The notes below the pieces were generated by a model. It had not been told where the DNA came from. It searched no databases and saw only the letters and a program-made list of their open reading frames with translations. A program made the translations under genes and the position numbers. Shown here one piece after another: positions 44,793-60,018 of a DNA stretch of 64,000 bases (its first letter is position 1; every line of letters starts with the position of its first letter). Location: positions 3,840-67,839 of the forward strand of contig DASPWU010000186.1 of assembly GCA_035637675.1 (NCBI GenBank), in the 5' to 3' direction. This DNA comes from Candidatus Limnocylindria bacterium. GTDB lineage: Bacteria > Chloroflexota > Limnocylindria > Limnocylindrales > CSP1-4.

Positions 44793-46469
44793 GTGCGGAC
44801 CCCCGTCACCCTGTTTGTGTTCGCCCTCGTGGTCCGGACCATCCTCGTGGCGCTCTATCCGGATCCGGCGTACCCCGACTCCTATTACTACGTGGATGTC
44901 GCCCGGGCGCTCAACGCCGGCCACGGTTTCAACATCGACTTCATCTGGGCGTTCGTGGAGACCGGCGGCCAGCTGCCGGCCAACCCGCAGCTGCCGATCC
45001 CCAGCAACGCCCACTGGCTACCGCTCGCGTCGCTCATCCAGCTGCCCTTCCTGGCCATCCTGGGAACCTCGCCCACGGTCGCGATGATCCCGTTCGTGAT
45101 CATCGGCGCGACCGCCGCCCCGCTCACCTGGGCAATCGCGCGCGACGTCGGCGCCAGCCGGGCGATCCAGATCGGCGCGGGCCTCATGACCGCCGTGCCG
45201 GCGGCCTCGACCGTGTTCATGGCCCAGCCCGACAACTTCGCGCTCTACCAGCCCCTGGGTGCCGCCGCCCTGTGGCTCGGCGCGCGAGCGCTCAAGGGCG
45301 ACCGGCGGGCCTTCGCCCTGGCCGGCCTGCTGGTTGGCCTCGCCTCGCTGGCCCGCAACGACGGCGTGCTCATCGGCCTGGCCCTGGCCATCGCCTTCTT
45401 CTGGGACCGCTGGCGAGCGTGGCGCTCCGGAAGCAGCCGGCGCCCGGCGATCGGCTGGGGCCAGGCCGTCGCCTGCGCCGCGCTGTTCGCTGTCGTCGTG
45501 GCTCCGTGGTGGATCCGACAGCTCGCGGTATTCGGCAGCATCTCGCCGTCGTCGGCGTCAGGCCGGATCCTGTGGATCCGCCAGATCACGGACATGAACA
45601 GCGTGACGATCCCGGCGACGCCCCAGACGTTCCTGGCCCAGGGCCTGGGTCCGCTGCTCGAGAGCCGGGTGTTCGGCTTCATCGCGGCGGTCGGGAACTA
45701 CGTGATCATCGTCCTCTCCTTCGTCCTGACGCCGTTTCTCATCGTGGGCGCGTGGATCCGGCGGAGCTCCATCGACTACCGGATCTTCTTCATCTACTCC
45801 GCCCTCCTGTTCGCCGCGGCGGGCCTGATCTTCGCCATCCACGTGCCGCTGGGCATGTTCCTCCACTCGGCCGTCGCGTTGGTGCCCCACACCTACATCC
45901 TGGTCCTGGAGGGAGTCGTGGCCGCGGTCGTCTGGATGGCCCGTAAACGGCGGAGCTGGAACCAGGCGGAGGCAACCCGCTTCTTCCTGGCGGCGACCGT
46001 CGGAGTCGCCTTTCTGACGGGCGCCCTGGGTACCTGGAAGGTCCACGAGGAATGGGCCCGGATGCGCCACGACCGACAGATGGCGGCGGCCGCCATGGAC
46101 CGTCTCGGAATCGGCCCGGATGAACGGGTCATGAGCGGCGACACGGCCGGCTTCAAGTACTTCACGGGTCGCGGCGGAGTCGTGACGGTCAGCGACCCGG
46201 TCGACGTGATCGGCCAGGTCGGTCGGGCCTATGGCGTCCGCTGGCTGATCCTGGAGCGGACCCACATCGTGGATACGCTCGGGCCGGTCCTCAAGGGCAC
46301 CCTCCGACCGAGCTGGCTGGGGTCGCCGGCCTGGTCGCTCGACGAGACGGCACAGCAGGATCCGGGCGACACCTACCCCGACATCGCCCTGTACCCGGTC
46401 TGCTTTGCGCCCGGCGATCTTCGCTGCGCCACGGCGATGGGGACCGCAGGGCCCTCCAGCCGGCCGTGA
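44793..46469 (+). CDS. GT39/GT83-like (PMT_2/ArnT-type) GT-C membrane glycosyltransferase
   Basis: N-terminal LYPDPAYPDSYYYVDVARALNAGHGF first-loop motif typical of ArnT/Pmt enzymes. A TAGACT -10-like element lies 14 nt upstream of the GTG. Confidence 0.65.
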   Translation: MRTPVTLFVFALVVRTILVALYPDPAYPDSYYYVDVARALNAGHGFNIDFIWAFVETGGQLPANPQLPIPSNAHWLPLASLIQLPFLAILGTSPTVAMIPFVIIGATAAPLTWAIARDVGASRAIQIGAGLMTAVPAASTVFMAQPDNFALYQPLGAAALWLGARALKGDRRAFALAGLLVGLASLARNDGVLIGLALAIAFFWDRWRAWRSGSSRRPAIGWGQAVACAALFAVVVAPWWIRQLAVFGSISPSSASGRILWIRQITDMNSVTIPATPQTFLAQGLGPLLESRVFGFIAAVGNYVIIVLSFVLTPFLIVGAWIRRSSIDYRIFFIYSALLFAAAGLIFAIHVPLGMFLHSAVALVPHTYILVLEGVVAAVVWMARKRRSWNQAEATRFFLAATVGVAFLTGALGTWKVHEEWARMRHDRQMAAAAMDRLGIGPDERVMSGDTAGFKYFTGRGGVVTVSDPVDVIGQVGRAYGVRWLILERTHIVDTLGPVLKGTLRPSWLGSPAWSLDETAQQDPGDTYPDIALYPVCFAPGDLRCATAMGTAGPSSRP

Positions 46470-48112
46470 CCCGACGCGAAGCCTGGCTGAGTGCCGGCGG
46501 CCTGTTCGTCCTCGCCCTCGTCGTCCGGTCGGCCATCGCCACCACAATCCCCTTCCCGACGCCGGAAGATACCGCCTACTACTACGGCGTGGCCCGGAAC
46601 CTGGTCGAAGGGCGGGGCCTCGTGTCCGACGCGATCTGGAGCTTCGGGACCCCGCCTCTGACATTTCCGCGCCCCGCGTTCGAGGTCTGGCTGCCGCTGC
46701 CCACGCTCCTGGCCGCGATTCCGATGCTCGTCCTGGGCACCGGCTTCCACGTCGCCCAGGTGGGCACGGTGGTCGTCGGGGCGCTCGTGCCGGTCCTGGC
46801 CTGGCGCCTGGCCGCCGACGTGGCGGCGGAACGGAGCCTGCCGCTCGGACGGGCCCGGACCTTGGCGCTGGGCTCCGGTCTGACGGCGATCATCCTCCTG
46901 CCCCTCGTGCTCCACGGCGTCCTGCCGGACTCGACGACGCCGTTCACCGCAATCGCGCTGGCGGCTTGCCTGCTGATGAGCCGTCTGGCCGGCGACGCCG
47001 GTCGCGTCCGATCGGCCGACCCGCGGCTCCTGGGGCTCGGCCTGCTGTTCGGCCTGGCGGCTCTGACCCGGAACGAGGTCGCCTGGCTGGGCCTCGCATG
47101 GATCCTCCTCGTCTGGCGGGCCGGTGGCGGCATGCCGACGCGCGCTCAACGGCTCCGGCTCGTCGCGATACCGGCCGCGATCGGGATCCTCGTGCTGGCG
47201 CCCTGGCTCGTCCGGGACTGGCTGACGTTCGGCAGCCCGCTGCCTGGCCAGGCCGCGACGAACGCGCTCTCGGTCAGCGGCTTCGACGTCTTCGCCTACC
47301 AGCAGCCCCCGACCCTTGCCCGCTACCTCGCCCAGGGGCCGGGCTGGCTCGTGTCGTCGCGGATCGAGGGCCTCACCCACAACCTGGTTACCGTGCTCCT
47401 CCTGCCCAGCGTGCCGGTTGGGATCGTGGGCCTGCTCGCCCTGCCCTGGACCGGCCGCGCGCGGGCCCTCCGGCCGGTCGTTCTGGTGTCGGTCCTGACC
47501 TTCGTCGCGACGACCCTGCTGTTCCCCGTCTCGACCACGTGGGGCACCTTCCTGCACGCGGCCGGCCCTATTCACGTCCTGCTCATCGTCAGCTGCCTCC
47601 TGGCGCTCGATGCTGCCATCGCCCGGCTGGGGGCCTGGCGCGGCTGGACTCGACCCGTCGCCTGGCTGGGTCCCGCACTGACGGTGTTCATGGCCGTCCT
47701 GTTCAGCGTCGGCATCCTCGGCTACGCGGGCCAGGCGCGCCAGGTCGAGCGCCGCTACCAGGCCCTGGGACCGGCCCTCGTCCCGGCCCTGGCCGCAGTC
47801 GGCCAGGGCGATCTGCGCAGTCCGGTCATCGCCGACTTCCCGATCTGGTACGCGGAGGGGATGCGGCAGCAGGCGCTCGCCCTGCCGGACGAGCCGCCCG
47901 CCGCGATCCTCGATCTGGCCCGCCGGTTCGGGGCCCGGCTCCTCGTCATCAGCAAGCCGGACCATGGCCGCTGGCCGGCCGTGCTCGACGCCGGCGGCCC
48001 CGACGCGGCCTGTTTCAGCGAGCTGCACCTCCCCGCGCCGGCCAATGCTGCTTCGGCGGAGGCGTTGCGGGGGACGCGCGCCTTCCTCATCACGCTGGTA
48101 GGCTGCCCGTGA
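46466..48112 (+). CDS. GT39/GT83-like (PMT_2/ArnT-type) GT-C membrane glycosyltransferase, paralog of the preceding gene
   Basis: TIPFPTPEDTAYYYGVARNLVEGRGL motif. GTG start overlaps the upstream stop (GTGA). Confidence 0.65.
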   Translation: MTRREAWLSAGGLFVLALVVRSAIATTIPFPTPEDTAYYYGVARNLVEGRGLVSDAIWSFGTPPLTFPRPAFEVWLPLPTLLAAIPMLVLGTGFHVAQVGTVVVGALVPVLAWRLAADVAAERSLPLGRARTLALGSGLTAIILLPLVLHGVLPDSTTPFTAIALAACLLMSRLAGDAGRVRSADPRLLGLGLLFGLAALTRNEVAWLGLAWILLVWRAGGGMPTRAQRLRLVAIPAAIGILVLAPWLVRDWLTFGSPLPGQAATNALSVSGFDVFAYQQPPTLARYLAQGPGWLVSSRIEGLTHNLVTVLLLPSVPVGIVGLLALPWTGRARALRPVVLVSVLTFVATTLLFPVSTTWGTFLHAAGPIHVLLIVSCLLALDAAIARLGAWRGWTRPVAWLGPALTVFMAVLFSVGILGYAGQARQVERRYQALGPALVPALAAVGQGDLRSPVIADFPIWYAEGMRQQALALPDEPPAAILDLARRFGARLLVISKPDHGRWPAVLDAGGPDAACFSELHLPAPANAASAEALRGTRAFLITLVGCP

Positions 48113-48159
48113 GCGCGCCCGATCGGCCCCGGGAGGGGCGCCCGTATACTCGGGAGCCG

Positions 48160-49248
48160 ATGGACACTGCCCGACCACCGTCACAGGGACGCGACGGTCG
48201 CTTCGATGGGCTTCATGCCGAGGCGAAGGCCACGCTGGGCGACTCTGCGAATTCGCTCCATGCGATCCGGGAGCGATATCGCGCGGCCTACCAGGAAGAG
48301 CTGACCAGATGGCAGGCCCTGCGCAACAACCTTGATGCCGTGTTTCGGCCGTCCGCCGGCGGGGCCATCGCGACGCGTTCCGGCGACCCGGCATCGGCGA
48401 CGGAGGCGGATGCGGATGACAGCCGGATTCGAACGCTTCGCGCCGACGTCGACGAGCTGGCGGCGGAACTGGCGATGCATCGGACGGAGCTGTCCAAGCT
48501 CGATGTCGCTCACCGCAGTCTCGAGACCGCGTGGCTGTTCATGGAGCGGGGCGACGCGAGCCTCGTGGCCAGCCCCGAGACGCTCCTGCCGGCCGATCTC
48601 CAGATGCGGATCGTGGAGGCCGGCGAGGCCGAGCGCTCGCGGCTGGCCCAGGAGATCCACGACGGGCCCGCCCAGGCCCTCAGCAATGCGATCTTTCAGG
48701 TGGAATATATCGATAAGGTGCTGGACCAGGACAGCCGGATGGCCCATACGGAGCTGCGCTTCCTGCGCGACCTGTTGCGCCGGGAGCTGGGCGACGTCCG
48801 CAGCTTCATCACGCAGCTGCGTCCGCCGCTCCTCGAGCAGCTCGGCCTGGACGGTGCAATCGCCGATTCCGTGGACACGATGAAGACGCTCACCGGCCTG
48901 CCGATCGAAACCGACCTGCAGGCGCCGGCCGACCGACTCGCCGAGGCCGAGCAGACGGTCGTGCTGCGGGTGGCCCAGGAAGCCCTGCAGAATGTGCGCA
49001 AGCACGCGGCAGCCAGCCGCGTAACGATCTCCAGCCGGATGGCCGGCACGGACTGGAACCTGGAGGTGCGCGACGATGGGAGGGGGTTCGATGTCGGAGC
49101 AGTGGCGTCACGTGGCCGGCGCAACTTCGGCCTCCAGTTCATGAGGGAGCGCGCCGAGCTGATCGGCGCCCGTTTCGAGGTTCGGTCGCGCCCCGCGGGG
49201 GGCACGGTCGTGGTGCTATCGATCCCGACGGGAGAGGAGAGCAGATGA
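48160..49248 (+). CDS. Cytoplasmic sensor histidine kinase (HisKA_3 + HATPase_c, NarL-partner type)
   Basis: LAQEIHDGPAQAL H-box, then a C-terminal ATPase (VLRVAQEALQNVRKHA...DDGRGF...GLQFMRERA). No TM segments. GGGAG RBS. The table ORF 46405..49248 is a readthrough. Confidence 0.8.
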   Translation: MDTARPPSQGRDGRFDGLHAEAKATLGDSANSLHAIRERYRAAYQEELTRWQALRNNLDAVFRPSAGGAIATRSGDPASATEADADDSRIRTLRADVDELAAELAMHRTELSKLDVAHRSLETAWLFMERGDASLVASPETLLPADLQMRIVEAGEAERSRLAQEIHDGPAQALSNAIFQVEYIDKVLDQDSRMAHTELRFLRDLLRRELGDVRSFITQLRPPLLEQLGLDGAIADSVDTMKTLTGLPIETDLQAPADRLAEAEQTVVLRVAQEALQNVRKHAAASRVTISSRMAGTDWNLEVRDDGRGFDVGAVASRGRRNFGLQFMRERAELIGARFEVRSRPAGGTVVVLSIPTGEESR

Positions 49249-49991
49249 GCGCGATGGACTACAGCGGGCCCGAGCGGAGGCGGGGTGGACCCGACCGGCG
49301 GACCGTCGGCGAGAAGACAAAGATCCTCATCGTCGACGACCATGCCCTGTTCCGGGTCGGCATCCGCAACATCCTCGAGAAGGAGTCCGACTTCGAGGTC
49401 ACCGGTGAGGCCGACGACAGCCGCAGCGCATTCGACCTCGCCGTCGAGACATCGCCCGACATCATCCTCATGGACCTCTCGCTGCCCTCGCCCGGCGGCA
49501 TCGAGACGACCCAGCGCATCAAGCGCGAGCTGCCGTCCGCCGGGATCATCGTCCTGGCGGTCAACGAGGACGAGGACGCCCTGTTCGATGCGATCAAGGC
49601 GGGTGCCGCCGCCTTCATCCTCAAGGACGTCGGTCCGGACGACCTGGTCACGATCATCCGGCGTGTCTTCCTGGGCGAGTACCTGATCAACGACAAGGTC
49701 TTCGCCAAGCCGGCGGTCGCCAGCCGGGTCCTCAAGGAATTCCGCGAGCTGGCCGTCTATGGGCAGGAGGCCGCGCCCATCTTCGCCCCGCTCTCCCCGC
49801 GCGAGGTGGAGATCCTCGACAACATCGCCCAGGGCATGACCAACAAGCAGGTCGCCTACGCCCTGTCGATCAGCGAGCAGACCGTCAAGAACCACATGAG
49901 CTCGATCCTCCGCAAGCTGTCCGTCAATGACCGGACCCAGGCCGTCGTCTACGCGATGCGTCAGGGCTGGATCAGGATGCCCGAAGACTGA
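49245..49991 (+). CDS. NarL/FixJ-family response regulator (REC + LuxR HTH)
   Basis: ILIVDDHALFRVG...DIILMDLSLP receiver domain and the C-terminal LSPREVEILDNIAQGMTNKQVAYALSISEQTVKNH. ATGA overlap with the kinase. Confidence 0.9.
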   Translation: MSAMDYSGPERRRGGPDRRTVGEKTKILIVDDHALFRVGIRNILEKESDFEVTGEADDSRSAFDLAVETSPDIILMDLSLPSPGGIETTQRIKRELPSAGIIVLAVNEDEDALFDAIKAGAAAFILKDVGPDDLVTIIRRVFLGEYLINDKVFAKPAVASRVLKEFRELAVYGQEAAPIFAPLSPREVEILDNIAQGMTNKQVAYALSISEQTVKNHMSSILRKLSVNDRTQAVVYAMRQGWIRMPED

Positions 49992-50037: not shown

Positions 50038-51321
50038 ATGAGCGAGACCGCGACACCGCCGCCCACACCGGTCACCGTCGCCGAGATGGCCACGGGTACG
50101 GCACGGCATGCCGAGACGATGCAGAACGAGCTGGACGAGATCGAGCTGCTCGTCCAGCAGGCTCGGACGGAAGCGGGCCGCCACGAAGCGAAGAGGGCCC
50201 AGGTGGCCGAGCGTCTCGTAGCGGCTCGGGCCGCCGGCGCCGGCGACCCGGCGGTCCAGCTCGATCTCGCCGAACAGCTCGTCACGCTCACGAGACGGGC
50301 GGTGCTGATGGACGCCCAGGTCGAAGTCCTGGAGGGCAAGGCCAAGGTGCTGGGACGGTACCGCGACGTGGTGGCCGAGATTGCCGCCGGCCTGTCCGCC
50401 CTGGGCGCCGGCCCCAGCGCCGCCGGCCAGGCAGCGGCTGAGCGTGTGGCCGTGTCGCCGGCCTTCACGAGGATCGTGCTCGGGGCCCAGGAAGACATGC
50501 GCCGGGACATCGCGCGGGCAATGCATGACGGTCCTGCCCAGAGCCTCACCAACATCGTCCTTCAGGCCCAGATCGTGGAACGCCTCATCACGGACGACCC
50601 GGCCCGGGCCCAGGAAGGAATCCAGCAGCTGGTATCCATGGTCCAGACCACCCTCGACGCCACGAAGTCGTTCATCTTCGACGTGCGGCCGATGGTTCTC
50701 GACGACCTGGGGCTCGTCCCGACGCTGCGGCGAGCCGCCCGCGATCGTGGCAAGCGCGACCAGGTGCCGGTCGAGTTCGAGTCGCTCGGACTGGATCGAC
50801 GCCTGTCCATGGAGCTCGAGAGCGGGCTCTTTCGGATCGTGGACGAGGCGCTGGGCGGCTTCCTCTCGAACGGTCCAGAGCGGGTGTCGATCCGGCTGGA
50901 CTGGAGTGACCAGCTGGACGTACGAGTGCGTGCCGAGCGCACGCCCGTGCGCGTACCCGAGGTCACCGAGCCGAGCCCGCCCCAGTCCTCGCGCGGTCGC
51001 GGCAAGGGCAAGCAACAGGACCTGCCGCCCGCGCTGGTGGCGATGATCGCGGAGCGCCGCGAGGATCGAGCCGCCGCCGTCGAAACAGCCCGCCGGGCCG
51101 CGATCGTGCCGTTGCCGGCGGCCGCCTGGCGAGAGATCCAGGACCGGGCCGCGACCCTGGGGATCAGGGCCGAGCTCCGGACCTGGGACGACCGCACGCC
51201 GGAGGGGTCGACCGAACAGCCGACCGAGACGGCCATCGACCCATTGACCAGTCAGGCACCCCAGCCGCGAACCGAGCTCCGGCTCGTCGCCGACATCGTC
51301 GACCTGCCGGGGGCCGGCTGA
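50038..51321 (+). CDS. Second HisKA_3-type histidine kinase-like protein with atypical C-terminus
   Basis: Coiled-coil N-terminus and an H-box IARAMHDGPAQSL. A degenerate ATPase region follows, and a long disordered tail. Confidence 0.6.
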   Translation: MSETATPPPTPVTVAEMATGTARHAETMQNELDEIELLVQQARTEAGRHEAKRAQVAERLVAARAAGAGDPAVQLDLAEQLVTLTRRAVLMDAQVEVLEGKAKVLGRYRDVVAEIAAGLSALGAGPSAAGQAAAERVAVSPAFTRIVLGAQEDMRRDIARAMHDGPAQSLTNIVLQAQIVERLITDDPARAQEGIQQLVSMVQTTLDATKSFIFDVRPMVLDDLGLVPTLRRAARDRGKRDQVPVEFESLGLDRRLSMELESGLFRIVDEALGGFLSNGPERVSIRLDWSDQLDVRVRAERTPVRVPEVTEPSPPQSSRGRGKGKQQDLPPALVAMIAERREDRAAAVETARRAAIVPLPAAAWREIQDRAATLGIRAELRTWDDRTPEGSTEQPTETAIDPLTSQAPQPRTELRLVADIVDLPGAG

Positions 51322-51344
51322 GCGGCCGGGCTGACCGACCCGGC

Positions 51345-51572
51345 ATGTTCGCTTGCCGGTTCTCTGGCCGATCGATCGCCCCGACGGGGTGGGCAGACGG
51401 CCTGCCGACGGCCGGCCTGCAGGCGAGCGCACGCAGTGGCCAGGGGATCGTCGAGTACGGCCTGATCCTCAGCCTGATGGTGGTCGTGGCGGGCGTGATC
51501 CTGGTGGTGTTCGGGGGCACGCTGGCCGAGGTGCTGTCCGTGATCGGATCGGCGATCGACGGCCCCGGCTGA
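51345..51572 (+). CDS. flp: Flp/Fap-family pilin (divergent copy 1)
   Basis: G-x4-EY motif (GQGIVEYGLILSLMVVVAGVILVVFGG) plus a hydrophobic helix. Unusually long leader if ATG 51345 is used. Confidence 0.55.
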   Translation: MFACRFSGRSIAPTGWADGLPTAGLQASARSGQGIVEYGLILSLMVVVAGVILVVFGGTLAEVLSVIGSAIDGPG

Positions 51573-51672
51573 ATGGGCCAGTACCATCTCGCTAGTGGTC
51601 TTTCGAGAAACGCCCTGCCTATAGTGGCCGCGCCCTCATCCGGGGGACCAGAACTCATCCAGGAGGCCACGA

Positions 51673-51843
51673 ATGGCGCTTATCCACATGTTCCTCAGCT
51701 CGCTTCGCCGAGACGAGGAAGGCCAGGGTCTCGCCGAGTACGCGCTGATCCTCGCCCTTATCGCGATCGTCGCGATCATCGCCCTGATTTTCCTGGGCGG
51801 CCGCGTCAGCCAGATCCTCAGCAACGTCGGTAACTCGGTCTAG
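51673..51843 (+). CDS. flp: Flp/Fap-family pilin (copy 2)
   Basis: 57 aa: MALIHMFLSSLRRDEEGQGLAEYALILALIAIVAIIALIFLGGRVSQILSNVGNSV. GGAGG RBS. Prepilin cleavage motif G/LAEY. Below the ORF-table cut-off. Confidence 0.85.
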   Translation: MALIHMFLSSLRRDEEGQGLAEYALILALIAIVAIIALIFLGGRVSQILSNVGNSV

Positions 51844-51865
51844 TCACAGCGACGCCTGAGCGAGT

Positions 51866-51903
51866 GCGGCCGTTCGGGCCCCGATGGGCGCCCGAACGGC
51901 CGC
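51866..51903 (+). terminator. Terminator hairpin after flp copy 2
   Basis: gcggccgttcgggc-N10-gcccgaacggccgc 14-bp stem, followed by ttcgttct. Confidence 0.55.
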
Positions 51904-51951
51904 TTCGTTCTATGGGGCGTTGCCTTCCATGAAGCACGGAAGGAGTCGCCC

Positions 51952-52122
51952 ATGTCATTCATTCGAGCCGTGCTCGACCGCCACCGGCGGAGCGAGCAGG
52001 GCCAGGGTCTCACCGAATACGCACTCATCCTCACTCTCATCGTCATCGTCGCAATCATCGCCCTCGTCTTCATTGGGGGCCAGGTAAGCCAGGTCCTCAG
52101 CAACGTCGGCAACTCTGTTTAG
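51952..52122 (+). CDS. flp: Flp/Fap-family pilin (copy 3)
   Basis: MSFIRAVLDRHRRSEQGQGLTEYALILTLIVIVAIIALVFIGGQVSQVLSNVGNSV. GGAAGGAG RBS. Confidence 0.85.
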   Translation: MSFIRAVLDRHRRSEQGQGLTEYALILTLIVIVAIIALVFIGGQVSQVLSNVGNSV

Positions 52123-52146
52123 CCGCCGTCTGCATCGATGAACTGG

Positions 52147-52179
52147 AAGGACCGCCCGGGCTCAGCCCGGGCGGTCCTT
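52147..52179 (+). terminator. Terminator hairpin after flp copy 3
   Basis: aaggaccgcccgggc-tca-gcccgggcggtcctt, a perfect 15-bp stem followed by tcgatt. Confidence 0.6.
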
Positions 52180-52424
52180 CGATTCCACAGCCAGCCGGGA
52201 TTCCATGGGCCGCGGTCCGGTTGGACGGCTCGACGACCGGACGGCCCGGACGGGCGTCGGCGCACCGCTCCGTTCGCCGGTCTCTTGACAGCCGGCCCGG
52301 CCTTGCCTAGTGTGGCGCGGCCATTGGGCGCCGGGGGCCCAGGGGTTCTTGTGGACTCCGCCGCCCGGCAGCTCTCGTCGAGGATTCGGCGAGGGACTAT
52401 CGAGGAAAGGAGGTCCACACATCC

Positions 52425-52595
52425 ATGTCGCTTATCACCGCTCTCATCGCTTCCTTCCGTCGCGACGAGGAAGGCCAGGGTCTCGCCGAGTACGCGCTGA
52501 TCCTCGCCCTCATCGCGATCGTCGCGATCATCGCCCTCATCTTCCTGGGCGGCCGCGTCAGCCAGATCCTCAGCAACGTCGGTAACTCGGTCTAG
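52425..52595 (+). CDS. flp: Flp/Fap-family pilin (copy 4, near-identical to copy 2)
   Basis: MSLITALIASFRRDEEGQGLAEYALILALIAIVAIIALIFLGGRVSQILSNVGNSV. GAAAGGAGG RBS. Confidence 0.85.
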   Translation: MSLITALIASFRRDEEGQGLAEYALILALIAIVAIIALIFLGGRVSQILSNVGNSV

Positions 52596-52610
52596 TCACA
52601 GCGACGCGAC
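52461..52610 (+). repeat. About 150-bp near-identical direct repeat of 51709..51858 (3' two-thirds of the flp gene plus 15 nt downstream)
   Basis: Nucleotide identity apart from three synonymous changes. Same downstream tagtcacagcgacgc. Implies a recent tandem duplication or gene conversion. Confidence 0.8.
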
Positions 52611-52615
52611 ACATG

Positions 52616-52648
52616 CGGCCGCCCGGACCCAGCGGGTCCGGGCGGCCG
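52616..52648 (+). terminator. Terminator hairpin after flp copy 4
   Basis: cggccgcccggaccc-agc-gggtccgggcggccg, a 15-bp stem followed by ttcc. Confidence 0.55.
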
Positions 52649-52912
52649 TTCCATGTCCACGCCAGGCGCCTCCGCGGCACCGGCGATTCGAGCTGACGGG
52701 CGGGCGATCGGCGACCTTGAACCGTGGCGCCCCGGCCGCCGCTCGCCTGTCCCGGCCGCCTCGACCATCGCCCGGACGGGCGGCGATTCACGCACCGCAG
52801 GCGGGCCGTTTCTCGCCAATTCTTCCTAACGGTCCTAGCCCTTTGGTATAGTCGCGCCGCCTTTGGGCGGTGCTACAGTGGTGCCACCTGTCACACGGCT
52901 GGGGAGAACACA

Positions 52913-53833
52913 TTGAAGCGGTCGAACCGTCTCGTCCTGCTCATCGGGGTCCTGCTTGCGGTCGTTGCCTTCGTGGGCATCGTCCTCGTTCTGGGACAAG
53001 GCCCGAGCACTGGGCCGGGCCCTCAAGCGACGATCCCGACGACGACCAACGTCGTCAAGGCCAAGGTGGACATCGGGGCCGGGACCATCGTCACCGCGGA
53101 CATGGTCGACACCGGGATCCTGCCGATCGGCGCGGCCGCAAACACGTTCCCGGATCCGGGTTTCGTCATCGGTCAGACGATCCGCAAGGACGTGAAGGCG
53201 GGAGCGATCCTGATCCATGACGACTTCATCGACCTGGGCCAGACCAGCAACGTCACCGACGGGTTGCCTCTCGGCCTCAGGGCGATGGCCATCCAGGTGG
53301 ATCAGGTCACCGGCGTCGGGACGCTCATCCACCGCGGCGACAGCGTCGACATCGTCATCGGCCTGAAGATCCAGCAGACGCTGCCCGACCCGACCGACAA
53401 GACGAAGACCAAGATCATCAAGGTGGGAGACCCGCAGGCCAGCGTCAAGATGATCATCCAGAACGTGAAGGTCCTGGGAACGCTTCTCCCGGCGGCGCCC
53501 GCCCAGGCGCAGCAGCAGCAGCAACCGGGCGCCTCTCCCTCGCCGGGCGCCCAGAGCCAGCCCAACACCACGCTCAACGGCCAGCAGGAGATGGTCATGG
53601 TGGCCGTGACGGCCAACCAGGCCGAGGCGATCCGCTGGGCGCAGCTCTACACCGACCCCATGGCCCTCGTCCTCCGCTCGCCCAAGGACTACGTGGCGAT
53701 CGACGCCAGCGGGTCCCCGATCCCCGGAGCCAGCCCCATCGTTCCGCCGCTCGAGAAGACCGACGGCATGATCCTCAAGATCCTCATCGACAAGTACGGC
53801 GTCATTCCCCCGAACCTCCTGGTCGTCCGCTAG
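52913..53833 (+). CDS. cpaB: Flp pilus assembly protein CpaB/RcpC (TM anchor + SAF domain)
   Basis: N-terminal TM LVLLIGVLLAVVAFVGIVLVL, a SAF-like domain (VVKAKVDIGAGTIVTADMV) and a Q/P-rich linker. TTG start with a GGGGAG RBS. Confidence 0.75.
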   Translation: MKRSNRLVLLIGVLLAVVAFVGIVLVLGQGPSTGPGPQATIPTTTNVVKAKVDIGAGTIVTADMVDTGILPIGAAANTFPDPGFVIGQTIRKDVKAGAILIHDDFIDLGQTSNVTDGLPLGLRAMAIQVDQVTGVGTLIHRGDSVDIVIGLKIQQTLPDPTDKTKTKIIKVGDPQASVKMIIQNVKVLGTLLPAAPAQAQQQQQPGASPSPGAQSQPNTTLNGQQEMVMVAVTANQAEAIRWAQLYTDPMALVLRSPKDYVAIDASGSPIPGASPIVPPLEKTDGMILKILIDKYGVIPPNLLVVR

Positions 53834-53933: not shown

Positions 53934-55184
53934 ATGGCCGACCAGATCAGAGTCCTCATCGTCGACGACATCCCGGAGACGCGCGACCACCTGGCGAAGC
54001 TTCTCGGCTTCGAGGGTGACATCGACGTGGTCGGCTCTGCCGCCTCGGGCGCCGAGGCAATCGAGCAGGCCGGTCGACTCCAGCCGGACGTCGTCCTCAT
54101 GGACATCAACATGCCCGACATGGACGGGATCACCGCGACGGAGCGGCTCTCGTCCGAGGTCCCCACGGCCTCCGTTGTGATGATGTCCGTCCAGGGCGAG
54201 GCGGACTACCTGCGCCGCTCGATGCTGGCGGGTGCCCGCGAGTTCCTCGTCAAGCCGTTCAGCAGCGACGAGCTGACCGCGTCCATCCGCCAGGTCTACG
54301 CCCGCGAGCGCGACAAGGCGAGCCGGTTCGTCATCGCTGCTGCCGGGCCGTCGGCGTCCTCACGGTCCGCCCAGGACGCGGATCCCGGCATCGTGGTCGC
54401 CCTGTTCAGCCCCAAGGGCGGCGTCGGCCGGACCACCGTGGCGGTGAACATGGCGATCGCCGCGGCCACGGAGCTCGGCAAGAAGGTCGTCCTCGTCGAC
54501 GGCTCGTTCCAGTTCGGGGACGTGGGCGTCCTCATGAACCTGAACCCCAAGAACAAGTCGATCGCGGACCTGGTGCCCGAGTTGGAGGCCGGCGGCGAGC
54601 CGGAATCGCTCGACACGTTCGTGATCAACCACTCGGCCGGCGTGGGGGTCCTCCTGGCGCCGCCCTCGCCCGAGATGGCCGAGCTGATCACGCCGGGCGG
54701 CATCAAGCGGGTCCTGGAGCGTCTCCGCGAGACCAACGACCTGGTCATCGTGGACTGCTCCTCGTACTTCAACGACACCACCCTGGCGATCCTCGACGTC
54801 GCCGATGTGATCCTGACGATGCTCACCCTCGAAATCACGAGCATCAAGAACATGCGCCAGTTCCTGGAGGTTGCCGACCAGCTCGGCTACGAGCCGGGCA
54901 AGCTTCGGCTGGTCCTCAACCGGGCCGACTCGACCCTGGGCATCCGCGTGTCTGACGTGGAGCACTCGATCGGTCGCAAGGTGGACCACTCCATCGTGAG
55001 CGACGGGCGGAGCGTCGTGTACGCCCTCAATCGGGGCGTGCCGTTCTTCCTGTCGAATCGGGAAGCGCAAGTCTCGCAGGACATCCTTCGCCTCGCGGTG
55101 TCGGTGGCCGGTGAGACAAAGGAGCCGGTCGTCGACGACGCCCGGAAGGCAGCCAAGAACAAATCACTTTTCGCATGGCGATAG
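53934..55184 (+). CDS. cpaE: CpaE/TadZ-like pilus assembly ATPase with N-terminal REC domain (REC + ParA/MinD-type P-loop)
   Basis: RVLIVDDIPETRDH...VVLMDINMPDMDG receiver domain, and the deviant Walker A SPKGGVGRTTVAVNMA. Confidence 0.85.
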   Translation: MADQIRVLIVDDIPETRDHLAKLLGFEGDIDVVGSAASGAEAIEQAGRLQPDVVLMDINMPDMDGITATERLSSEVPTASVVMMSVQGEADYLRRSMLAGAREFLVKPFSSDELTASIRQVYARERDKASRFVIAAAGPSASSRSAQDADPGIVVALFSPKGGVGRTTVAVNMAIAAATELGKKVVLVDGSFQFGDVGVLMNLNPKNKSIADLVPELEAGGEPESLDTFVINHSAGVGVLLAPPSPEMAELITPGGIKRVLERLRETNDLVIVDCSSYFNDTTLAILDVADVILTMLTLEITSIKNMRQFLEVADQLGYEPGKLRLVLNRADSTLGIRVSDVEHSIGRKVDHSIVSDGRSVVYALNRGVPFFLSNREAQVSQDILRLAVSVAGETKEPVVDDARKAAKNKSLFAWR

Positions 55185-55219: not shown

Positions 55220-56635
55220 ATGTCCCTTCTCAAGCGGATCGAGAGCGCACGACCGGGATCCGGCCCGGCGTCCCCGGGCGTCCCGGTGGCCGTTGGCGGA
55301 CCGGGCCAGGCGCCGCCGCCGGCCGGCACGCCGCCGTCGGCCCAGGCCGCCCGGCTCATGACCACGGGACCCGTCCGCGAGTCCTTCCGGGACGTCAAGT
55401 TCCGCATCCAGAACCGAGTGATCCAGGACCTAGACCCCAAGCTGGACCTGTCCAACCAGGTCGAGGTACGCCGCCAGATCGAGGAGATCTTCGGCAAGGT
55501 CATCGACGAGGAAGGGCTTGCCCTGACCCGCGCCGAGCGGGTCCGGATGCTCGAGCAGATCACGGACGAGATCATCGGCCTGGGTCCGCTGGAGCCGCTC
55601 CTCCGCGACGAGAGCATCACCGAAGTGATGGTCAACGGGCCGCGCCAGGTCTACATCGAGCGGTCGGGCAAGCTCGAGCTGACCAACGTCGTCTTCCAGA
55701 ACGACGACCACGTCATGCGGATCATCGATCGGATCATCGCTCCGATCGGCCGCCGCGTGGACGAGTCCAGCCCGATGGTCGACGCGCGCCTGACCGATGG
55801 CTCGCGCGTCAATGCGATCATTCCGCCGCTGTCGCTGGTTGGCCCGGTCATCACGATCCGGAAGTTCTCGGCCAGCCCGTTCACGGTGGACGATCTCATC
55901 CGCTTCGGGACGGCCACCCCGGAGATGTTCGACTTCCTCAAGGCCTGCGTGGAGGCCCGCCTGAACATCTTCGTGTCAGGCGGCACCGGCTCCGGCAAGA
56001 CCACGACGTTGAACGTCCTGTCGTCGTTCATCCCCAACGACGAGCGGATCGTCACGATCGAGGATGCCGCCGAGCTGCAGCTCCGCCAGGAGCACGTGGT
56101 GACCCTTGAGTCGCGCCCGCCGAACATCGAGGGCAAGGGTGCGATCCCGATCCGCGAGCTCGTCCGGAACTCCCTCCGCATGCGCCCTGACCGGATCATC
56201 GTCGGGGAGTGCCGGTCGGGCGAAGCGCTCGACATGCTCCAGGCCATGAACACCGGCCATGACGGCTCGATGTCTACCGGCCACGCCAACAGCCCGCGCG
56301 ACATGCTCTCGCGCCTCGAGACCATGGTCCTCATGGCCGGCGTGGACCTGCCCGTCCGGGCAATCCGCGAGCAGGTCGCCTCGGCGGTGGATCTCATCGT
56401 CCACCAGGCGCGCCTCAAGGACGGGACCCGGCGGATCACCAACATCACCGAGGTCCAGGGCATGGAGGGCGACGTCATCGTCATGCAGGACGTCTTCGTC
56501 TTCGAGCAGACGGGCGTCGTGGAAGGCAAGATCCAGGGGCGCCTCAAGCCAACCGGCATCCGCCCGAAGTTCGTCGAGAAGTTCGAGGTGATGGGGATCC
56601 ATCTGCCGCCGGGCCTCTTCGGCTTCAGCTTCTGA
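55220..56635 (+). CDS. cpaF: CpaF/TadA secretion ATPase (type II/IV secretion NTPase)
   Basis: Walker A GGTGSGKTTTLN, Asp box, Walker B IIVGECRSGEALDMLQAMNTGHDGS, His box. Confidence 0.9.
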   Translation: MSLLKRIESARPGSGPASPGVPVAVGGPGQAPPPAGTPPSAQAARLMTTGPVRESFRDVKFRIQNRVIQDLDPKLDLSNQVEVRRQIEEIFGKVIDEEGLALTRAERVRMLEQITDEIIGLGPLEPLLRDESITEVMVNGPRQVYIERSGKLELTNVVFQNDDHVMRIIDRIIAPIGRRVDESSPMVDARLTDGSRVNAIIPPLSLVGPVITIRKFSASPFTVDDLIRFGTATPEMFDFLKACVEARLNIFVSGGTGSGKTTTLNVLSSFIPNDERIVTIEDAAELQLRQEHVVTLESRPPNIEGKGAIPIRELVRNSLRMRPDRIIVGECRSGEALDMLQAMNTGHDGSMSTGHANSPRDMLSRLETMVLMAGVDLPVRAIREQVASAVDLIVHQARLKDGTRRITNITEVQGMEGDVIVMQDVFVFEQTGVVEGKIQGRLKPTGIRPKFVEKFEVMGIHLPPGLFGFSF

Positions 56636-56654: not shown

Positions 56655-57668
56655 ATGCCCAGCTTGACGCTCCTCGTCGCCGCAGCGGCCGCCGGCGCCA
56701 TCATTCTCATCGCCCTGGGGGTGGCGACCTCCGGCAGCGGTTCGGGGATCAGCACCCGCCTGGAGCGCTACGCATCCGGCAAGGAGGAAGGGCCCAAGGT
56801 CGGCACCGGCCAGGGTGGGCTCGCCGATCTCCTCGCCCAGAGCGCCGCGCTCGCCAACCTCAACAAGGTCGTCGAGCAGCGCGACTTCGGCGCGAATCTG
56901 TCCCGCGAGCTGGCCCGGGCGGACCTCCGCCTGAAGGTCAGCGAGTACCTCGGGATCTGGGCTGGCGTCACCGTCGGCGTGCCGATCCTCATGCTCGTCC
57001 TGTCGATCTTCATCCCGACCCTGGGCAATCCGATCTTCGTGCTGGTTGGTGCCCTGATCGGCTTCATGATTCCGCGGATCTGGCTCAGCCGCCGGAAGAG
57101 CGGCCGGCTCAATGCGTTCAACAAGCAGCTCCCGGACACGATCATGCTCATCGCCAACGCGCTCCGAGCCGGGTCGTCGTTCCTGCAGGCCATCGAGCTG
57201 GTCGTCCGCGAGTCGCGGCCGCCCATCTCGACGGAGTTCGCGCGGGTCATTCGGGAGGTCAACCTGGGCCTGCCGTTCGAGCAGGCACTCGAGAACATGG
57301 TCCGGCGCGTTCGCTCCGACGACCTCGAGCTGATGGCCACCGCCATCGCCATCCAGCACACCGTCGGCGGCAACCTCGCCGAGATCCTCGACTCGATCGC
57401 GTTCACGATCCGCGAGCGAATCCGGATCAAAGGTGAGATCCGGACACTGACCGCGCAGCAGCGGCTGTCCGGCTACGTCGTCGGCTTCCTGCCGATCGCC
57501 CTGGCCGGGTTCCTGTTCGTCGCCGCGCCCGGCTTCATGGATCCGATGTTCAAGAACCCCCCGGACATCCTGGGCCTGCCAGCCGGCGTGGTGATTCTCA
57601 TGTTCGGTGGGCTGATGATGTTCATCGGCTTCATGATCATTCGTCGCATCGTCGACATCGAGGTCTGA
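56655..57668 (+). CDS. tadB: Flp pilus assembly inner-membrane protein TadB (T2SS-F domain)
   Basis: T2SSF-type domain (LPDTIMLIANALRAGSSFLQAIE...) with flanking TM helices. Confidence 0.8.
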   Translation: MPSLTLLVAAAAAGAIILIALGVATSGSGSGISTRLERYASGKEEGPKVGTGQGGLADLLAQSAALANLNKVVEQRDFGANLSRELARADLRLKVSEYLGIWAGVTVGVPILMLVLSIFIPTLGNPIFVLVGALIGFMIPRIWLSRRKSGRLNAFNKQLPDTIMLIANALRAGSSFLQAIELVVRESRPPISTEFARVIREVNLGLPFEQALENMVRRVRSDDLELMATAIAIQHTVGGNLAEILDSIAFTIRERIRIKGEIRTLTAQQRLSGYVVGFLPIALAGFLFVAAPGFMDPMFKNPPDILGLPAGVVILMFGGLMMFIGFMIIRRIVDIEV

Positions 57669-57673
57669 CCACG

Positions 57674-58615
57674 ATGCCTGTTGCAGCACTCATCGTCGCC
57701 GGGGCAGCCGCCTTCGCGATCCTCCTCATCGTCGTCGGTCTGGCCGGCAGCTCGCCGGTCGACCCCGTCCAGGCCCGCCTGACACAGCTCGGGTCGATGC
57801 AGGCCAGGAACCTCGAGGAACTGGAACTCCAGCAGCCGTTCATCGAGCGCACCCTGCGCCCCCTGGCCAGCCGGCTGTCGGGCACCGTGGCCCGGATCAC
57901 CAGCGCGTCGTTCGCCGATCGGACCCAGAAGCGCCTCGCATTGGCGGGCAACCCCGGCGACCTGCGCGTCGCCGACTGGCTGGGCATCAAGGCCATCGCG
58001 GCCTTCATCTTCTCCGCGCTGTTCTTCGTCCTCGCGGCGTTCGTCTTCGGAGCCGGCGTGACGGGCGGCGTGCTGATGGGCGCGATCGGCCTCGTCTTCG
58101 GCTACATCGCTCCCGAGTTCTGGCTCGGCGGACGCGTCCGCAAGCGCCAGAAGGCCATCCTGATGATGGTCCCCGACTCGCTCGACCTGCTGACGATCTC
58201 GGTCCGGGCCGGCCTCGGCTTCGATGCCGCGCTGGGCAAGGTGGTCGAGAAGCTCAAGGGCCCGCTCACGGACGAATTCCGGCGGGCGCTGGCCGAGGTT
58301 CGCGTTGGCAAGGCTCGCCGCGATGCCCTGCGGGACATCGTGCCGCGAACCGAAGTGCCGGCCCTGACCAACTTCATCGGCGCGATCATCCAGGCAGAGC
58401 AGCTCGGCGTCTCGATCAGCAAGGTGCTCCAGGTCCAGTCCGAGCAGCTCAGGATCGAGCGCCGGCAGCGGGCCGAGGAGATGGCCGCAAAGGCGCCGAT
58501 CAAGATGCTCTTCCCGCTCGTGGGCTGCATCTTCCCGTCGCTGTTCATCATCATCCTGGGCCCCGCCATCATCCTCATCGCCCTCAACCTGGGTGGCGCC
58601 AGCGGCGCCAAGTAG
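57674..58615 (+). CDS. tadC: Flp pilus assembly inner-membrane protein TadC (T2SS-F domain)
   Basis: MVPDSLDLLTISVRAGLGFDAALGKV... T2SSF domain with TM helices. Confidence 0.8.
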   Translation: MPVAALIVAGAAAFAILLIVVGLAGSSPVDPVQARLTQLGSMQARNLEELELQQPFIERTLRPLASRLSGTVARITSASFADRTQKRLALAGNPGDLRVADWLGIKAIAAFIFSALFFVLAAFVFGAGVTGGVLMGAIGLVFGYIAPEFWLGGRVRKRQKAILMMVPDSLDLLTISVRAGLGFDAALGKVVEKLKGPLTDEFRRALAEVRVGKARRDALRDIVPRTEVPALTNFIGAIIQAEQLGVSISKVLQVQSEQLRIERRQRAEEMAAKAPIKMLFPLVGCIFPSLFIIILGPAIILIALNLGGASGAK

Positions 58616-58628: not shown

Positions 58629-59012
58629 ATGGGGGACGGCGGGCCGGCTCAAAACCTCACTCGGGGGGCACGGCTGGCGGACCGGCTGGAGGTCGCCGCC
58701 GGCCTGTGGGACAAGTTCCGCGGGCTCATGGGCCGGCCGGACCTGCCATCGGGACACGGGCTGTGGCTGCCGGACAGCAACGGCATCCACATGATGTTCA
58801 TGCGATTCCCGATCGATGCCGTGTTCGTCGGTCGCCCTGGCTCCGACGGCTCGCGACCGGTGGTCGCCCTGCGACGGGCCCTTCGACCGTGGACCGGCGT
58901 CGTCTGGTACGTACGGGACGCTCACGGCGTGGTGGAGCTGCCGGCCGGCGCGATCGACTCGTCCGGCACGCAGGTCGGCGACCTCATCGCACTGGGAGCC
59001 GAAGCCGGCTGA
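58629..59012 (+). CDS. DUF192 (COG1430) family protein
   Basis: GLWLPDSNGIHMMFMRFPIDAVFV is the DUF192 core. Start chosen at MGDGG after the tadC stop; the table ORF starts at 58593. Confidence 0.6.
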   Translation: MGDGGPAQNLTRGARLADRLEVAAGLWDKFRGLMGRPDLPSGHGLWLPDSNGIHMMFMRFPIDAVFVGRPGSDGSRPVVALRRALRPWTGVVWYVRDAHGVVELPAGAIDSSGTQVGDLIALGAEAG

Positions 59013-59093: not shown

Positions 59094-59834
59094 GTGAGGG
59101 CCATCCGGCAGGCTATGGACATGACCACGCACGACGCCGCCCGGCCGCGCCTGGGACCGGCGCGATGGCGTCGGGCCGGTGCCTGGCTCCTCGACCTGGC
59201 CCTGCCCGCGACGTGCGTCGGCTGCGGCCGGGAGGAGGAGCCGATCTGTCGGGCCTGCCGGCCGGCCCTCGCGGTGCGGGACGGGGTGCCGGCCGGAGCA
59301 CCCATCGGACTGCCCTCCGACGTGCCGGAGCCGCTGCTGCAGCTCGAGTGGTGCGCCCCGTTCGGCGGGCTGGTGCGCCGCGCGCTGCACGACCTCAAGT
59401 ACGCGGGTGAGCGCCGGCTGACGGAGCCGCTCGGCGCCGCGATCGCCGATCGCTGGCGGCGGACCGGCGCCGGCGGCGATCTCATCGTCCACGTGCCGGT
59501 TCACGCCGACCGTGCCCGCGAGCGCGGCTACGACCAGGCGGAGACCCTCGCCCGCGTCGTGGGCCGGGAGCTGGGGTTGCCGCACGTCGCCGCCCTCGAG
59601 CGCGGCCGGGCCACGGTTGCCCAGTTCCAGCTCGGACGCGATCGACGCGCGGCGAACGTCGCCGGGGCGTTCAGGCCCGCCGGTCCGGCAGCGGCGTCTG
59701 CCGTGGCCGGCCGATGGATCATCCTCGTCGACGACGTCGTGACGACCGGGGCTACGCTGGCGGCATGTGCAGAGGTCCTCCTGGACTCGGGCGCGATCGG
59801 CGTGTCGGCGGTCACGGTCGCTCGCGAGCGCTGA
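59094..59834 (+). CDS. comF: ComF/GntX-family phosphoribosyltransferase-like protein
   Basis: N-terminal zinc finger CVGCGREEEPICRAC and a C-terminal PRTase fold IILVDDVVTTGATL. Start may be the internal ATG at about 59119. Confidence 0.75.
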   Translation: MRAIRQAMDMTTHDAARPRLGPARWRRAGAWLLDLALPATCVGCGREEEPICRACRPALAVRDGVPAGAPIGLPSDVPEPLLQLEWCAPFGGLVRRALHDLKYAGERRLTEPLGAAIADRWRRTGAGGDLIVHVPVHADRARERGYDQAETLARVVGRELGLPHVAALERGRATVAQFQLGRDRRAANVAGAFRPAGPAAASAVAGRWIILVDDVVTTGATLAACAEVLLDSGAIGVSAVTVARER

Positions 59835-60018
59835 GTCGGCAGGCACCGTCACATCCGCTCCCCCCGCACGGTCCGTCGGACCCCTCGTCGACGCTCCCGG
59901 GAGATGGCCGAGGATATACTCGGGCCAGGACAACTCGACGTCGGCGGTCGCTCGAGAACTGCCGCGCAGCGGTTCATGCCAACGATGCGACCGAGCTGCG
60001 CTCGACGGAGGTACCTCC

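Follow-up and report, generated by a model that had tools for sequence, protein, structure and literature searches.

An array of four flp-type pilin genes was analysed in a 64-kb stretch of DNA (the window, meaning the whole stretch) from an uncultured soil member of the Chloroflexota (Ca. Limnocylindrales/Limnocylindria), a lineage known from metagenome-assembled genomes (MAGs). The GC content of the window is 69%, and all coordinates refer to it unless a related locus is named. Four flp genes lie in tandem, as a preliminary description of this DNA had stated; all are on the + strand, each with the Flp motif and a hydrophobic core:

51345-51572, + strand: c1, divergent type-1 Flp-like paralog, 75 amino acids (aa) from the only in-frame start
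51673-51843, + strand: c2, canonical Flp prepilin, 56 aa, leader MALIHMFLSSLRRDEEG, mature part 39 aa
51952-52122, + strand: c3, variant 'B-type' (LTEY) Flp prepilin, 56 aa
52425-52595, + strand: c4, canonical Flp prepilin, 56 aa, leader MSLITALIASFRRDEEG, mature part identical to that of c2

Assignment to the Flp prepilins of a Tad locus was made because of the G/xxxxEY motif, the 56-aa size, the Flp_Fap matches and the tad genes downstream, and on these sequence features the genes are Flp prepilin genes. The length of 57 aa given earlier for c2 to c4 had counted the stop codon. In these three genes the sequence around the cleavage site (marked by a slash) is RRDEEG/QGLAEYALILALIAIVAIIALIF, i.e. 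QGL(A/T)EYALIL after the cut: the G/xxxxEY processing motif of Flp pilins, with a hydrophobic helix behind it; in c1 the motif, also of the G/xxxxEY type, reads ARSG/QGIVEYGLILSLMVVVAGVILVVF, and the predicted mature part is QGIVEYGLILSLMVVVAGVILVVFGGTLAEVLSVIGSAIDGPG. All four products are short prepilins in the range of ~50-80 aa with G/XXXXEY and a ~20-residue hydrophobic stretch. Scores with an Flp profile of the lineage were 31.6 bits for c1, 115.5 for c2, 104.2 for c3 and 121.3 for c4, and GC content at third codon positions (GC3) was coding-like throughout (0.79-0.89, with 0.89 for c1). Nearly 8000 relatives of the c4 protein were found in databases, mostly of 56 aa, the named ones being 'Flp family type IVb pilin' from Chloroflexi / Ca. 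Limnocylindrales MAGs; homologs at 82-98% identity are annotated with PF04964.20 and the same NCBI name. Of the assembly collection, 63 blocks contain the exact c4 protein (23 contigs were read), and the layout of 75+56+56+56 aa is the same in six contigs, L001-L006.

Pilins of solved Tad filaments gave weak matches to the prepilin, colinear from EY to the tail (8u2b/8ucr, an Flp family type IVb pilin, E 0.031; 8u1k, PilA, E 0.11), and the register of the 8u2b/8u1k alignment places mature position +1 at Q18, from which a 17-aa leader and a 39-aa mature pilin are predicted. Conservation was tallied on 146 distinct 17-residue canonical leaders, in all of which G-1 is invariant, and on 121 distinct canonical mature sequences, in all of which E5 and Y6 are kept. 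The mature part of c3 differs from that of c2 and c4 at 7 of 39 residues (A4T, A11T, A14V, I22V, L24I, R27Q and I31V). Its open reading frame (ORF) is intact and has a good Shine-Dalgarno (SD) sequence, GGAAGGAG.

Related arrays and the likeness of c2 and c4

The comparison set consisted of 80 loci from a scan of species-representative genomes, all of them Ca. Limnocylindrales/Limnocylindria or unclassified Chloroflexota MAGs. Loci were sorted using the lineage Flp profile and phmmer searches with the window's neighbour proteins, by which the 49 loci with full flanks were divided into 34 tad-linked loci and 15 orphan flp genes in unrelated contexts. Nearest-neighbour statistics were compiled for 152 canonical genes at 78 loci, of which 116 genes were scored. 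Two relatives recur below: L004, a related strain or species, and L051, a different species. At least two canonical flp genes were counted in 33 of the 34 tad-linked loci, with a mode of three (one copy at one locus, two copies at 7, three at 20, four at 4 and five at 2), and multi-copy flp arrays are, by these gene counts, the norm for the lineage. The single-copy loci were considered as second tad loci and rejected as such, being orphan flp genes in unrelated contexts. Orphan genes of the same subfamily lie at about 7001-7170 in each of L035, L046, L048 and L050, in neighbourhoods unrelated to one another; that of L050 adjoins a T4 gp19-like tail-tube protein and a LysM protein, and that of L035 an SDR-adenylate cyclase fusion and a cNMP-binding protein.

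In register, c2 and c4 match at 141 of 144 nt (51712-51855), with mismatches at 51759, 51786 and 51789, all synonymous, and a longest exact run of 66 nt. The match has a sharp 5' boundary 12 nt before the cleavage codon and reaches 12 nt past the stop codon. The two genes had been described as nucleotide-identical over about 150 bp including 15 nt of 3' flank; near-identity is borne out, as are the 15 nt if the stop codon is counted, while full identity is contradicted by the three mismatches. Upstream of the boundary the leaders of c2 and c4 agree at only 35 of 51 nt, whereas the c2 leader agrees with its orthologs at 49/51 nt in L004 and 44/51 nt in L051, and the c4 leader with its L004 ortholog at 49/51 nt. 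The array of L051 has the form A-B-A'-B', with a fourth canonical copy, against A-B-A' in the window. Its c4 ortholog (L051 6632-6919) is recognisable; a single nucleotide is missing from its leader, which puts it out of frame with the ATG, and it is either a pseudogene or the product of a sequencing error. Since both c2-type and c4-type leaders have orthologs in other genomes and the A-B-A(-B) array is shared, the duplication behind c2 and c4 is judged from these alignments to be old, predating the species splits, and not the recent ~150-bp event of the preliminary description.

Across the lineage, the nearest neighbour of a gene by mature-coding nucleotides is a paralog from the same locus in 76 of 116 cases (1.3% expected by chance), against 25 of 116 by leader. 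Mature parts are at least 95% identical in 29 within-locus pairs whose leaders are 27-96% identical, and species-specific tails are common to all canonical paralogs of a genome (STVGSSI in L011, SNVGKSI in L024, and SNVGNSI). Because mature parts cluster by genome and leaders do not, the near-identity of c2 and c4 points to gene conversion (concerted evolution) of the mature-coding segment, to very strong constraint on it, or to both, and not to recent duplication, so far as sequence comparison can tell. The pattern expected of concerted evolution, with paralogs closer than orthologs in the converted segment and not in its flanks, is found in the lineage-wide nearest-neighbour counts. The 12 nt of non-coding 3' flank, identical between c2 and c4 of the window and matching at 8/12 in L004, suggest a recent short conversion tract in the window.

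In the three closest genomes (window, L004 and L051), the A-type mature-coding parts are identical at 113-118 of 120 nt in every comparison, paralogs being no more alike than orthologs, and the c3 type has diverged faster, to 104/120 nt, and the flanks to about 30%. For these genomes, selection on the sequence, for example on the codon use of a highly expressed gene, may explain the identity as well as gene conversion does. Together with a protein core almost invariant over the 121 distinct sequences, this gives some credit to purifying selection alone, acting on the protein and on the codons or mRNA of a very highly expressed gene with no gene conversion. That account is nevertheless considered somewhat unlikely in view of the substitutions that all L011 copies (...STVGSSI) and all L024 copies (...SNVGKSI) have in common behind unrelated leaders, the excess of same-locus neighbours by mature nucleotides over that by leader, and the extension of the c2/c4 identity into the non-coding flank.

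Putative promoters, hairpins and transcription units

A scan of 50800-53200 for consensus promoters and terminators (4/6 matches per hexamer, at least 5 T in the tail) found no promoter. These criteria are too strict for a genome of 69% GC, and cross-species conservation was used instead. The following features were placed:

51581-51666, + strand: c2 upstream block, from an alignment of 24 species, consisting of GTACCA (51581-51586), CTAGTG (51592-51597), -10-like TATAGT (51620-51625), a potential hairpin GCCCTC..GGGGG (51632-51646) and ACTCATCCAGGAGG including the SD (51653-51666)
51858-51910, + strand: terminator-like hairpin after c2, an inverted repeat with core arms at 51866-51903, then TTCGTTCT; free energy (dG) -47.2 kcal/mol, z -6.27
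52139-52187, + strand: terminator-like hairpin after c3, an inverted repeat; dG -45.4 kcal/mol, z -5.05
52285-52313, + strand: putative sigma-70-type promoter of c4, TTGACA (52285-52290), 17-nt spacer, TAGTGT (52308-52313)
52616-52648, + strand: terminator-like hairpin after c4, an inverted repeat with perfect 15-bp arms; dG -46.0 kcal/mol, z -6.40
52806-52912, + strand: putative promoter and 5' untranslated region (UTR) block of cpaB, -10-like TATAGT at 52847-52852

The similar -10-like elements quoted in the preliminary description are both present with the sequences given there, tgccTATAGTggccgcgcc at 51616-51634 upstream of c2 and tgccTAGTGTggcgcggcc at 52304-52322 upstream of c4, and a third such element, TATAGTcgcgccgcc, precedes cpaB at 52847. 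At c4, -35 and -10 hexamers were found at a spacing within 16-18 nt and at a conserved position; the site is the only one of its kind within 51200-53000 and would give c4 a 5' UTR of roughly 105 nt. The corresponding pattern (TTGACA with at most one mismatch, 16-18 nt, TAnnnT) occurs within 170 nt upstream of 52 of 84 later-position canonical genes, against 32 of 3240 control segments (1%).

Upstream of c2, the consensus over 24 species consists of GTAC[CG]A, CTAGTG, about 22 variable nt, (T)ATAGT/ATATT, GCCCTC-loop-GRGGG and ACTCATCCAGGAGG just before the ATG, the last of these being conserved far beyond the needs of an SD before first-position flp starts. The c2-type motif precedes 21 of 79 first-position copies, against 1 of 84 later copies. 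At c2 and at cpaB only the conserved -10-like TATAGT was seen, with no -35. Because the c2 block has a -10 without a -35 and its conserved upstream half sits at the position of an activator site, we infer that c2 needs an activator, for which the adjacent LuxR-type regulator is the obvious candidate, and that c4 is driven by its consensus promoter. The potential 5'-UTR hairpin (CCCUC/GRGGG) is 95% pairable in the alignment, with no compensatory change and with shuffles equally pairable; an alternative pairing of CCU with the SD proposed by RNAalifold is weak (-3.6 kcal/mol), and no covariation was found for either. An Rfam search of 51200-53000 at E<=1 returned only sub-threshold matches to generic GC hairpins and no known RNA family.

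Hairpin stability was assessed on stretches of 70-78 nt downstream of c2, c3 and c4, each against 200 shuffles, none of which (0/200) was as stable as the native sequence in any of the three cases. Lineage-wide, the minimum free energy of the 80 nt downstream averages -41.1 kcal/mol, against -31.3 kcal/mol for controls, and 73 of 149 downstream regions fall under the control 5th percentile. The c1-c2 spacer is unstructured (z +0.23), so that c1 has no hairpin downstream, and no -10-like element was found upstream of c1; no promoter-like element was found for c3, which starts 48 nt past the core of the c2 hairpin (arms ending at 51903). The statement that each gene has its own -10-like element and terminator can accordingly be kept for the hairpins of c2 to c4 and the -10-like elements of c2 and c4, and must be dropped for c1, which has neither, and for the promoter of c3. 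On cross-species conservation, c2 and c4 very probably have promoters of their own, and c2, c3 and c4 each have a terminator-like hairpin of their own that is conserved across species.

About 115 nt before cpaB are 100% identical among the window and L001-L006, including the divergent L004, while the rest of the spacer varies, which supports a separate promoter and UTR for cpaB. Between near-identical strains the c4-cpaB spacer (window 52660-52805) differs by a 75-nt deletion in L002 (6172-6420) and a 50-nt deletion in L006 (1678-1951); in L005 (6172-6550), 55 nt across the cpaB start are directly duplicated, perhaps as an artefact of assembly. The spacer was also considered as a repeat array, and this was rejected, the length differences being simple deletions and the one 55-nt duplication.

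Neighbouring genes and a possible pilin modification

The genes flanking the array were annotated as follows:

44793-46469, + strand: GT-C-type membrane glycosyltransferase (Pfam PMT_2, E 3e-10)
46466-48112, + strand: GT-C-type membrane glycosyltransferase, paralog of the preceding gene, no Pfam match
48109-49248, + strand: histidine kinase (Pfam HisKA_3 + HATPase_c)
49245-49991, + strand: LuxR/GerE-type response regulator (Pfam)
50038-51321, + strand: HisKA_3-only protein (HisKA_3 E 8e-14; longest ORF from 49927; 427 aa in public gene calls)
52913-53833, + strand: cpaB/rcpC, TTG start (Pfam RcpC)
53934-55184, + strand: REC-cpaE/tadZ (Pfam Response_reg + AAA_31)
55220-56635, + strand: cpaF/tadA (Pfam T2SSE)
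56655-57668, + strand: tadB (Pfam T2SSF)
57674-58615, + strand: tadC (Pfam T2SSF)
58629-59012, + strand: DUF192 gene, end of the conserved block (Pfam E 1.8e-14)

The pilin genes are linked to RcpC/CpaB, TadZ/CpaE, TadA/CpaF, TadB and TadC, with the same gene order in all 34 tad-linked loci. Among these loci cpaB-tadC is kept in 34, the HisKA_3-only gene in 34, the histidine kinase-response regulator pair in 33-34, the GT-C pair in 33 and the DUF192 gene in 30. Since the GT-C genes, the kinase and the regulator follow one another with successive 4-nt overlaps, they are taken to form one operon. The HisKA_3-only protein, in which no HATPase_c was detected, lies between the two-component pair and the flp array and could be a kinase-dead partner, a phosphatase, or a kinase whose ATPase domain is too divergent for Pfam. 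The CpaE/TadZ homolog has a strong canonical receiver domain (Response_reg E 3e-28). The DUF192 (COG1430) gene directly follows tadC, and no literature linking DUF192 with pili was found. Beyond the tad block, 59094-60663 encodes a ComF-like protein (double zinc ribbon plus phosphoribosyltransferase), a possible link to competence, and the ribosome hibernation factor hpf.

The adjacent GT-C island mentioned in the preliminary description is present, and in the region 11329-48112 genes for GT-C-fold membrane glycosyltransferases are unusually dense. The GT87 gathering score is reached by at least eight ORFs there, of which two overlap and could be one gene; PMT_2, PIG-V-like, ALG6/8-like and DUF6044/YfhO-like proteins also occur, interspersed with GT2, GT4, methyltransferases, UDP-glucose/GDP-mannose dehydrogenase and spermine-synthase-like fusion proteins. 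From this gene content, the island probably builds an envelope glycan or lipoglycan.

Glycosylation of Asn residues in the pilin tail, as suggested earlier, is not supported: the Asn residues of the tail have no sequon, N34 and N37 are variable in the lineage, and N-X-S/T occurs in one of the 121 distinct mature sequences. The Ser residues of the exposed tail are kept among variable neighbours (Ser29 in 108/121, Ser33 in 115/121 and Ser38 in 108/121, with Gly36 in 120/121), and their O-glycosylation is possible on this pattern. A further reading considered is that the neighbouring GT-C enzymes O-glycosylate the tail and that the pilin genes form one functional unit with the GT-C/two-component operon, which would be compatible with the explanation preferred below. 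Two GT-C genes, one of them PMT_2, are translationally coupled to the kinase-regulator pair directly upstream of the array and stay there in 33 of 34 species loci, and a GT-C enzyme, TfpW, glycosylates the type IVa pilin in Pseudomonas aeruginosa (bioRxiv 10.1101/2020.04.19.049825). In the P. aeruginosa group IV system, as here, a GT-C membrane enzyme is linked to a pilin gene, and the acceptor would be a hydroxyl residue in an exposed part of the pilin; tfpW differs in lying immediately downstream of pilA, which encodes a type IVa pilin, whereas here the GT-C genes lie 3.2 kb upstream in a two-component operon. The proposal is nonetheless unlikely: gene order conserved within one class may simply have been inherited, the i/i+4 spacing of Ser29 and Ser33 could reflect helix packing, and the wider island, with its GT87, PIG-V-like and ALG6/8-like proteins, has the look of envelope glycan synthesis. 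The GT-C linkage and the Ser conservation are explained equally well by inherited gene order and by helix packing.

Interpretation of the array and comparison with known Tad systems

The first-position gene c1 starts 23 nt after the upstream stop codon and aligns with c4 without gaps at 41% identity over 41 aa, colinearly through the cleavage site and the core. It scores 74.9 bits with a type-1 profile, against its 31.6 bits with the canonical one. Type-1 genes (QG[ILV]VEYGLIL...FGG...IG.AID), c1 included, are present in 23 of 34 tad-linked loci and occupy the first position in 22; because the paralog is so widely present, c1 is, on this distribution, a conserved class and not a decayed copy. 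It is probably transcribed by read-through from the upstream sensor genes, and we infer that it is a candidate minor or specialised pilin. In many relatives the array ends with a third pilin class, missing from the window, whose leader is longer, whose tail reads ...SDKLS.IGS... and which has a gggcTATTGACA promoter of its own. Examples of this class are:

L008, 8752-8946
L011, 7368-7559
L043, 7353-7592
L086, 6995-7168
L024, 7385-7564

That some copies are non-functional, c1 being a decaying relic and c3 silent or barely expressed, appears doubtful. The missing SD, Pfam match and terminator of c1 and its non-conserved leader would fit, as would the lack of a promoter-like element at c3, the leader frameshift in the L051 ortholog of c4 and the silent flp3 of Bdellovibrio (PMC5430801). 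Against this, 23 of 34 species loci keep the mature part of c1 as a distinct class, with no visible conservation of the non-coding DNA around it, and c1 has a GC3 of 0.89; the ORF of c3 is intact, with a good SD and a terminator-like hairpin, and both L004 and L051 have an ortholog of it.

In Neisseria, gene conversion between pilE and pilS produces antigenic variation of a type IVa pilin, and the array resembles this system in the apparent non-reciprocal recombination among tandem or dispersed pilin paralogs. It differs in that the surface-forming mature part is homogenised, the leader diverges, and the copies are complete, with no promoterless cassettes. Silent partial copies of the pilS kind were sought and not found: every canonical copy is complete and has an SD. 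Within genomes across the lineage, no segment is more uniform than the mature part, and divergence is seen in the leader that is cleaved off, a pattern that is, at the level of sequence, the opposite of an antigenic-variation design. Multiple major pilin variants with switching had been suggested; since a single 39-aa mature pilin is encoded by c2 and c4, with different leaders in front of it, they are not variants of each other, and only c3 differs. A recent ~150-bp duplication of c2/c4 yielding alternative major pilins for switching, variation or mixed-subunit filaments would agree with the sharply bounded match and its shared flank, with the separate promoter-like elements and hairpins of c2 and c4, with the divergence of c3 and with the non-interchangeable, differentially regulated flp paralogs documented in Bdellovibrio (PMC5430801), but is quite improbable, as c2-c4 switching would alter nothing on the filament, the leaders stand closer to their orthologs than to each other, mature parts are homogenised within genomes throughout the lineage, and the copies are full length with an SD, none being a silent cassette.

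The locus is best read, at a rough probability of 0.8, as the pilin array of a secretin-less Tad/Flp (type IVc) pilus in which c2 and c4 are old paralogs kept alike. This reading builds on gene identity, anatomy and cross-species conservation as observed at the locus and its relatives; promoter firing, hairpin function, processing and the role of each copy would be as follows. The genes c2 and c4 would supply the same mature pilin from different leaders and promoters, and c3 a variant pilin without a promoter of its own, probably dependent on read-through of the c2 hairpin. The prepilins would be cut after the invariant Gly of RRDEEG/QGLAEY by an A24 peptidase encoded elsewhere, and the mature pilins then polymerised by CpaF/TadB/TadC. 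Each canonical gene would be a short transcription unit closed by a strong hairpin, giving abundant, stable pilin mRNA, and the hairpins would isolate the pilin genes from the cpaB-tadC operon with its own conserved promoter block.

Several results weigh against this reading, in addition to the parity of paralogs and orthologs in the three closest genomes. The scores with Pfam PF04964 (Flp_Fap) are below the gathering threshold of 32.2 bits (26.2 for c2, 17.5 for c3 and 27.7 for c4), and c1 has no Pfam match at E<=0.01 (Flp_Fap 12.2 bits, E 0.16), no SD, and a non-conserved leader with ambiguous starts. The tails of the hairpins, TTCGTTCT, TTCGATTC and TTCCATGT, have short interrupted T-runs (4-5 T in 8 nt), and none of the three flp hairpins was picked up by the consensus scan for terminators. 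TadE/F-type minor pilins were not found in the window or near any related locus. Peptidase_A24 had no Pfam match in any GC3-supported ORF of the window, and a six-frame scan of the window and of 88 loci gave no A24 motif GxGD[VIFLAM][KR] in a hydrophobic context. The last two results confirm the earlier statement that TadV/CpaA is not encoded in the window; Pfam searches of the genes neighbouring the orphan flp genes of L035, L046, L048 and L050 gave no TadV either. The lack of any tadV homolog in the genome had been put forward as a sign of a non-functional locus. Absence of tadV from the window is not evidence of a defunct locus, because about 80 related loci are also without tadV within 7 kb and the cleavage site is invariant.

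A more far-reaching combination, in which the GT-C pair would be dedicated to Flp O-glycosylation (S29, S33, S38), the c2 block would be under the LuxR-type regulator with c4 constitutive, several genes would be kept for one mature pilin and c1 would replace the missing TadE/F, is regarded as improbable. If true, GT-C glycosylation of an Flp pilus would be described for the first time, and an uncultured class abundant in soil would have a Tad architecture of a distinct, monoderm kind.

Limnocylindria are abundant uncultured soil Chloroflexota whose surface biology is little charted, and no literature linking them with pili was found. The 13-kb block of GT-C pair, two-component pair, HisKA_3-only gene, flp array, cpaB-tadC and DUF192 gene is a stable class-wide unit, for which concrete promoter, UTR and terminator coordinates are now given, and the focus moves to the regulation and gene dosage of a single pilin and away from antigenic variation. 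For pilus biology in general the array is a further example of paralogous flp genes and introduces no new principle; the homogenised mature module, the conserved type-1 paralog and the conserved GT-C/two-component linkage are modestly interesting comparative details.

Several flp paralogs are known from other Tad loci, Aggregatibacter actinomycetemcomitans having flp-1/flp-2 and Haemophilus ducreyi flp1-3. The tad locus of A. actinomycetemcomitans is also said to have a 'termination cascade' (the subject of Kram et al. 2008, J Bacteriol 190:3859, by its title), in which, as would be the case here, terminators after the pilin genes would give far more pilin mRNA than assembly-gene mRNA; that cascade reportedly works by attenuation from one promoter, whereas here c2, c4 and cpaB seem separately promoted and the U-tracts are weak. 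Bdellovibrio has four flp genes, of which three are required and non-interchangeable and one is silent (PMC5430801), Bradyrhizobium and Agrobacterium have compensating flp paralogs, with one flp under its own promoter (PMC12918737), and in Pectobacterium a two-component system beside flp/tad activates flp/tad. Like the loci of A. actinomycetemcomitans, H. ducreyi, Bdellovibrio and Bradyrhizobium/Agrobacterium, the Limnocylindria locus has small G/xxxxEY prepilins heading cpaB/rcpC-tadZ-tadA-tadB-tadC, several paralogs, some with their own promoters, and extra orphan flp genes elsewhere in the genome. It differs from them in having no secretin, TadD, TadE/F/G or TadV in or near the locus, a TadZ with a strong canonical receiver domain, up to five canonical copies plus a divergent first-position paralog, and an identical mature part behind different leaders.

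Closer in descent are the Tad loci of other Chloroflexota, i.e. rcpC-tadZABC, tadEEG and flp in the Chloroflexales (PMC7332563) and the locus of Litorilinea aerophila (bioRxiv 10.1101/2025.08.19.671072), which belong to the same phylum and have the same secretin-less rcpC-tadZABC core; pili were seen in those species by electron microscopy. In the Limnocylindria block no tadE/G was found within the ~7-kb flank. A single flp with tadE/G is reported for those relatives, whereas Limnocylindria combine the core with an flp array, a GT-C pair, a histidine kinase-response regulator pair, a HisKA_3-only protein and a DUF192 gene.

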